This document shows, in pieces, positions 10,846 through 11,140 of a DNA stretch of 11,676 nucleotides. A program made the translations under genes and the position numbers. The notes beneath the pieces were generated by a model. The model did no database searches and had not been told where the DNA came from. It saw only the letters and a list, made by a program, of their open reading frames with translations. This DNA is from a virus (Duplodnaviria; Heunggongvirae; Uroviricota; Caudoviricetes), in IMG/VR virus record IMGVR_UViG_2740892258_000014; one strand, written 5' to 3'. The number at the start of each line of letters is the position of its first letter. The stretch's first letter is position 1.

Positions 10846-11140
10846 CCTGCAACTTGCCGTTAAAGGTGAATACTTCGATGCCATGATTCGCGGAGAGAAA
10901 ACGGAAGAGTATCGCCTGTGTAATGACTACTGGAATAAGCGAATTATGTTCCGCGAGTATGACCGCCTGATTATCACAAAGGGATATCCGAAGCGCGACG
11001 ATTCCAGCCGCAGAATTGACGTCCCGTATGACGGATATGAAATCAAGACAATCACACATCCAGCCGCAGAATTGACGTCCCGTATGACGGATATGAAATC
11101 AAGACAATCACACATCCGCACTTCGGCGATAAACCGGTAA
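10838..11140 (+). CDS. ASCH/PUA-like hypothetical protein, frameshifted by a second 56-bp tandem duplication (intact frame would end at 11178)
   Basis: GTG start with AGGAGG SD; N-terminal LAVKGEYFDAMIRGEKTEEYR pattern resembles ASCH domains. Removing one repeat copy restores ...ITHPHFGDKPVKVFAIKVNIDNE ending at TGA 11176-11178. Confidence 0.45.
   Translation: MANLQLAVKGEYFDAMIRGEKTEEYRLCNDYWNKRIMFREYDRLIITKGYPKRDDSSRRIDVPYDGYEIKTITHPAAELTSRMTDMKSRQSHIRTSAINR
11005..11116. repeat. Perfect tandem duplication, 2 x 56 bp
   Basis: CAGCCGCAGAATTGACGTCCCGTATGACGGATATGAAATCAAGACAATCACACATC occurs at 11005-11060 and again at 11061-11116 with no mismatch. Confidence 0.9.

Follow-up and report, generated by a model that had tools for sequence, protein, structure and literature searches.

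Two 56-bp tandem duplications in a prophage contig of Escherichia coli A192PP are very probably seams of a k = 57 de Bruijn-graph assembly

The stretch of DNA analysed here, hereafter the window, is 11,676 nucleotides long and is part of contig CVOH01000124.1, which comes from a draft of E. coli A192PP (ST95, K1) assembled from short reads, with contig positions running two ahead of window positions (contig position = window position + 2). The accession prefix CVOH belongs to E. coli A192PP (PMC5054322), which was obtained from the ST95 K1 strain A192 by passage in rats and is deposited under PRJEB9141 (PMC5115809). In the lambdoid prophage to which it belongs, the region forms the early-left arm, and it adjoins torI and dsdC. 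Its genes begin with ninB, a DnaB-type helicase, an O-like replication protein, CII, Cro and CI, continue with Ral, CIII, Kil, ERF and an anti-RecBCD protein, and end with a 172-aa hypothetical gene, DUF7739, Ead/Ea22-DUF551, DUF4752, a gene named for an ASCH domain, a 55-aa gene and TorI. Within this last group, the 190-aa Ead/Ea22 + DUF551 ORF (window 9989-10561) is called intact in many assemblies, and for UTI89 and IHE3034 RefSeq gives two features in its place, an ead/Ea22-like pseudogene marked as partial and a 54-aa hypothetical protein; the split is an inconsistency of annotation and reflects no difference in sequence.

Tandem Repeats Finder (TRF) reports two perfect long arrays in the window, both with a period of 56: duplication 1 at 9444-9555 (2.0 copies, 100% match) and duplication 2 at 11003-11117 (2.1 copies, 100% match). 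An exhaustive scan for perfect tandem duplications with periods of 20-399 found none in the window besides these two, and 20.3 kb of contig CVOH01000124.1 hold no 56-bp duplication beyond them. In 11.7 kb, chance cannot produce a perfect tandem copy of 56 nt. The register of duplication 2 is ambiguous from 11003 to 11006, with TCC (3 nt) on either side of the array, and the coordinates 11005-11116, which a sequence-only reading of the window had given it, are one valid register of the array 11003-11117. Duplication 1 has no flanking microhomology, since it is preceded by g and followed by a. That reading had also seen no obvious similarity between the two units, and this is borne out by a comparison over all rotations and both strands, in which the best ungapped match is 21/56 against a shuffle mean of 22. 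A motif common to both units, which would have pointed to a sequence-directed process, was rejected as a candidate on the grounds that the best ungapped identity is at the level of shuffled sequence. The draft sequence contains no Ns at either duplication site.

Because 56 is not divisible by three, each of the two seams mimics a frameshift, and each, as had been noticed from the letters, falls in one gene, duplication 1 in the 172-aa gene and duplication 2 in the ASCH-like gene. As deposited, the former is read as a frameshifted 136-aa ORF (9117-9527); removal of one copy of unit 1 restores the 172-aa hypothetical protein WP_000812193.1 (window 9117-9691), for which no Pfam match was found. 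The ASCH-like gene (10838-11178, plus strand) is read as a frameshifted 100-aa ORF (10838-11140) in the deposited sequence, and the prediction that removal of one copy of unit 2 would restore an ORF ending at window position 11178 proved correct: the restored ORF encodes 94 aa and its DNA is identical to the UTI89 gene for WP_000002106.1, a RefSeq "ASCH domain-containing protein". The label "ASCH-like" agrees with this RefSeq name and finds less backing at the level of the domain, as the match of the restored protein to Pfam ASCH (PF04266) is weak and below the cut-off (E = 0.068, 14.3 bits, cut-off 21.2) and covers residues 6-28 only. NCBIfam gave no match for the restored 94-aa protein, and the label therefore rests on the RefSeq name.

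Exact look-up of the 100-aa frameshifted product returned a single contig in the collection, CVOH01000124.1 (34.8 kb) of GCA_001245225.1, and that of the 136-aa frameshifted product returned CVOH01000124.1 only. Since both frameshifted ORFs are recorded for this contig and assembly, the duplications really belong to the public record and do not stem from the cutting of the window. The neighbouring 190-aa gene, which is intact, has 5,627 blocks in the collection in which the frameshifted ORFs have one contig.

Independent genomes carry each unit once. With window 8800-11676 (2,877 bp) as query against 5,426 complete E. coli genomes and a threshold of one match covering at least 80% of the query, the region was present in 113 genomes. 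The best 30 of these 113, among them UTI89, IHE3034, NU14, APEC O18 and PMV-1, match at 100% identity in three pieces that span 2,765 bp, which is the query length less 112 bp, or exactly 2 x 56. Single copies at both sites in independent sequence, the result by which the earlier reading had proposed to recognise an artefact, are thus found in the best 30 of the 113 genomes. A BLAST comparison of the whole window with UTI89 gives three gap-free blocks edged by the two duplications, with 13 substitutions and no other gap. Two 44-mers, one straddling each duplication junction (ATGAAATCAAGACAATCACACATCCAGCCGCAGAATTGACGTCC and CAAAAAATCTGGTGGCCCAAGACGGGCGCAGGGGGTGGATGCTG), had no match in the 5,426 complete E. 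coli genomes, in metagenome contigs or in the GTDB species genomes. Across all collections searched, then, the duplications were not found in independent sequence of the lineage, the sequences compared being those of relatives and not of A192PP. The suggestion that the two genes are disrupted is not supported, as their frames are intact in every independent genome searched; judged from these sequences, both prophage genes are almost certainly intact in A192PP itself.

The position of the two units becomes meaningful once the stretch between them is followed into other genomes. The 190-aa Ead/DUF551 gene that lies between the duplications also occurs in a second, different prophage context (loci L007 and L008), in which RecT/YqaJ, DnaT-like, lambda P and DUF1064 genes are followed by the shared block and the terminase. 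Assembly GCA_964039275.1 has both prophage contexts on one chromosome (L008 and L009), as does the complete genome of IHE3034 (ST95, K1), where L013 is a further second-prophage locus with the shared genes. When the de-duplicated window, in which position 11006 corresponds to window 11118, is compared base by base with L008, identity is exact from 9444 to 11005 and is bounded by mismatches at 9443 and 11006. The exact stretch common to the two IHE3034 loci is likewise 1,562 bp long (from 9645 in the dsdC-side locus, L014, and from 3501 in L013), and the bases beside it differ between the two loci, G versus A before it (window 9443) and G versus C after it (window 11118). This 1,562-bp repeat begins with unit 1 (9444-9499; CGGGCGCAGG...CCCAAGA) as its first 56 nt and ends with unit 2, taken in the rightmost register, as its last 56.

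In IHE3034 (NC_017628.1) the repeat copies lie at 2,750,889-2,752,450 (L014 9645-11206) and 2,910,913-2,912,474 (L013 3501-5062), about 160 kb apart and in inverted orientation. A query of 2.56 kb, consisting of the repeat with about 500 bp on each side, matched the L008-type copy at 100% in five complete genomes, namely IHE3034, APEC O18, N1, N21 and N54, and four of the five (all except N1) are also among the listed 100% matches for the dsdC-side prophage. Inversion, or gene conversion between the prophages, could use the inverted pair of 1,562-bp copies in IHE3034 as a substrate. The repeat loses its identity abruptly at either end, and in the L007-type copy the right boundary lies elsewhere, at de-duplicated position 11054. 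Together, these features of the loci point to mosaic exchange.

K-mer graphs were built from the two IHE3034 loci, and the dsdC-side locus was walked. At k = 57 the walk passes through three unitigs (L014 1-9700, 9645-11206 and 11151-20765), with neighbours overlapping by k-1 = 56 nt, and the untrimmed concatenation of the three contains window 9001-11676 base for base, both duplications included. Four values of k were tried, and 55, 56 and 59 did not reproduce the window; k = 55, the usual SPAdes value, was rejected on this account. Velvet requires an odd k, and 57 is odd. The proposal that 56 bp might relate to a k-mer parameter of the assembly is thus supported in a specific form: with k = 57, k-1 equals 56, and each unit corresponds to the sequence that a flank unitig and the repeat unitig have in common where they overlap. 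The seams, tested as node boundaries, coincide to the base with the repeat ends in IHE3034 and GCA_964039275.1, which are relatives and not A192PP.

Read in this way, the window divides on the plus strand as follows. The left unique-flank unitig (1-9499), taken from the contig start, is gap-free to UTI89 until 9499, and its last 56 nt (9444-9499) lie inside the repeat; this tail is copy 1 of unit 1, with which the repeat begins, and position 9443 just before it differs between the prophage copies. Copy 2 of unit 1 (9500-9555), the artefactual extra copy that frameshifts the 172-aa gene, forms the head of the repeat unitig (9500-11061), which at 1,562 bp is identical in the dsdC-side lambdoid prophage and the second prophage and holds the 3' part of the 172-aa gene, DUF7739, Ead/Ea22-DUF551, DUF4752 and most of the ASCH-like gene. 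In the rightmost register, copy 1 of unit 2 (11006-11061) is the last 56 nt of the repeat and the tail of the repeat unitig, and copy 2 (11062-11117), again an artefactual extra copy, is the head of the right unique-flank unitig, which occupies 11062-11676 within the window and runs on into torI, dsdC and chromosomal genes.

We therefore hold with great confidence that the duplications are the seams of a k = 57 de Bruijn-graph assembly, in which overlaps around a repeat common to two prophages were left untrimmed. A192PP would carry a second prophage with the exact 1,562-bp stretch, as its relative IHE3034 does, and in the k-mer graph the two-copy stretch would collapse into one node. The left unique node would then extend k-1 = 56 nt into the repeat and the right unique node would begin 56 nt before the end of the repeat. 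The graph would have been built at k = 57, with Velvet the likely assembler, and a later step would have joined left flank, repeat and right flank end to end with the 56-nt overlaps kept, so that both terminal 56-nt segments of the repeat occur twice. Velvet normally does not duplicate overlaps on merging adjacent nodes, and an extra joining step must therefore be assumed. Candidates for it are scaffolding, reference-guided ordering of contigs on IHE3034 or gap closing. For the sister strain A192, the same laboratory obtained MiSeq reads (2 x 151), used Velvet with VelvetOptimiser for the assembly and took IHE3034 as the reference for ordering the contigs (PMC5115809). The k value of the A192PP assembly was not found in the open literature searched, and the report on A192 gives none for that strain (PMC5115809).

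A length-based cause in the form of a systematic assembly artefact had been the first suggestion of the sequence-only reading, and both the k = 57 reconstruction and the placement of the units at the repeat ends bear it out. The same reading had counted two independent events, which is not supported, as both are ends of one repeat node, and the templated biological process that it had also entertained is without support.

Several observations could nevertheless be taken to favour real mutations in A192PP, in which replication slippage or microhomology-mediated tandem duplication would have inactivated two prophage genes: TCC microhomology of 3 nt flanks duplication 2, the sequence stands in a deposited public assembly, and A192PP, as a laboratory-passaged derivative, may carry private mutations (PMC5115809). 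Against this, two events of identical length, 56 nt, would be needed, one covering exactly the start of the repeat and the other exactly its end, which no mutational process predicts, duplication 1 has no flanking microhomology, and neither junction occurs in any other genome searched. The authors moreover report no structural variants in A192P and A192PP, a result to be read with the limited power, by their own account, of read mapping and assembly to detect duplications (PMC5115809). Real mutation is accordingly a very improbable account of the two sites. A head-to-tail perfect copy is what microhomology-mediated tandem duplication produces, and the 3-nt microhomology at one of the two sites adds to the likeness, but this class leaves the identical lengths and the coincidence with the repeat boundaries unexplained, and the duplications are absent from the independent genomes searched. 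An even slighter probability attaches to real duplications that arose from a process at the edges of prophage homology, for example aborted recombination or template switching between the inverted copies with footprints of fixed length.

An artefact could also have come from a different step, if a gap-closing or read-merging program had over-extended two scaffold gaps by a fixed length and 56 were a parameter of that tool. Small tandem duplications at closed gaps are a known product of gap closers, and the identical length at both sites and the lack of Ns at either site in the draft would fit such a program. However, the units match the ends of the exact repeat to the base, only k = 57 of the four values reproduces the window, and an over-extension independent of the graph would not be expected to keep to the mismatches that separate the copies on the left and on the right. 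We regard this variant, too, as very improbable, and it is close to a sub-variant of the assembly-seam explanation, in which the seams would still be node boundaries. On either account of the joins, the duplications are not biology, and the prophage genes are almost certainly not broken in the bacterium.

Overlaps of k-1 (or k) bases in assemblies are best known as direct terminal repeats of length k, which SPAdes and MEGAHIT produce on circular contigs of plasmids or phages. The duplications resemble such terminal repeats in having a length set by k and perfect identity, in lying at a node boundary and in being absent from the real molecule. Unlike terminal repeats of circular contigs, the overlaps here are internal to a deposited contig in which three nodes are joined untrimmed, and because they are internal and not at the contig ends they look like frameshifting tandem duplications inside genes. 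False duplications at scaffold joins or closed gaps are similar in that a gene appears to be disrupted or gained in one assembly only; these are usually larger and of variable length and result from heterozygosity or mis-estimated gaps, whereas both duplications here measure k-1 nt exactly and belong to a prophage repeat whose two copies have collapsed. The edges of a de Bruijn graph are overlaps of k-1 bases (PMC5368935). That contigs from such graphs overlap by k-1 is already known and a matter of textbooks, and there is no real biological feature here.

The deposited draft has nevertheless placed two spurious frameshifted proteins and two false pseudogenes in public protein collections. Internal tandem duplications that are perfect, share a single length (k-1) and sit at both ends of a stretch repeated elsewhere in the genome form a signature for screening, by which pipelines that scan genomes could automatically discard findings of "recurrent same-length duplications". 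The value of the case lies in this quality-control rule and in the correction to two spurious protein records, and its biological interest is nil.

The start of the contig shows a further trace of the same k. The first difference between the contig and IHE3034 is at window position 55, which is contig position 57 and thus equal to k; this fits k = 57, since in such a graph the unitig beginning at a fork has 56 nt ahead of its first distinguishing base. Variant calls against draft assemblies have been found to peak at the contig position equal to the k used (PMC5368935). Within window 1-80 (contig 3-82), which lies in ninB, 8 of the 12 substitutions relative to IHE3034 cluster at 55-79. No complete E. 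coli genome matches the first 300 nt of the window at 100%, and the best matches to them, at 99.7%, are in non-ST95 strains with a different ninB allele. These matches suggest a contig that begins at a fork, with two ninB alleles present in the strain, or else one whose start is chimeric.

Two further repetitive stretches lie elsewhere in the window. Overlapping ORFs of 148 aa and 214 aa at window 6099-7164 include a low-complexity stretch very rich in E, A, K and R, and TRF places a period-6 array at 6708-6791 within this region. In UTI89 and IHE3034 the ORF pair is annotated by RefSeq as "cell envelope biogenesis protein TolA; frameshifted". Because complete genomes carry the TolA frameshift too, it is not specific to the A192PP assembly, unlike the 56-bp cases. 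The O-like replication gene (1861-2808, minus strand) contains period-12 repeats detected by TRF at 2270-2381 (TGTGCGGCTTCA / CATCATGTGCGG), which encode a repetitive protein stretch of 15 residues (letters not shown here) that runs on to ...HEAAQTTAH. In lambda, the origin iterons sit inside the O gene, and by analogy the period-12 repeats could be putative iterons of a replication origin.
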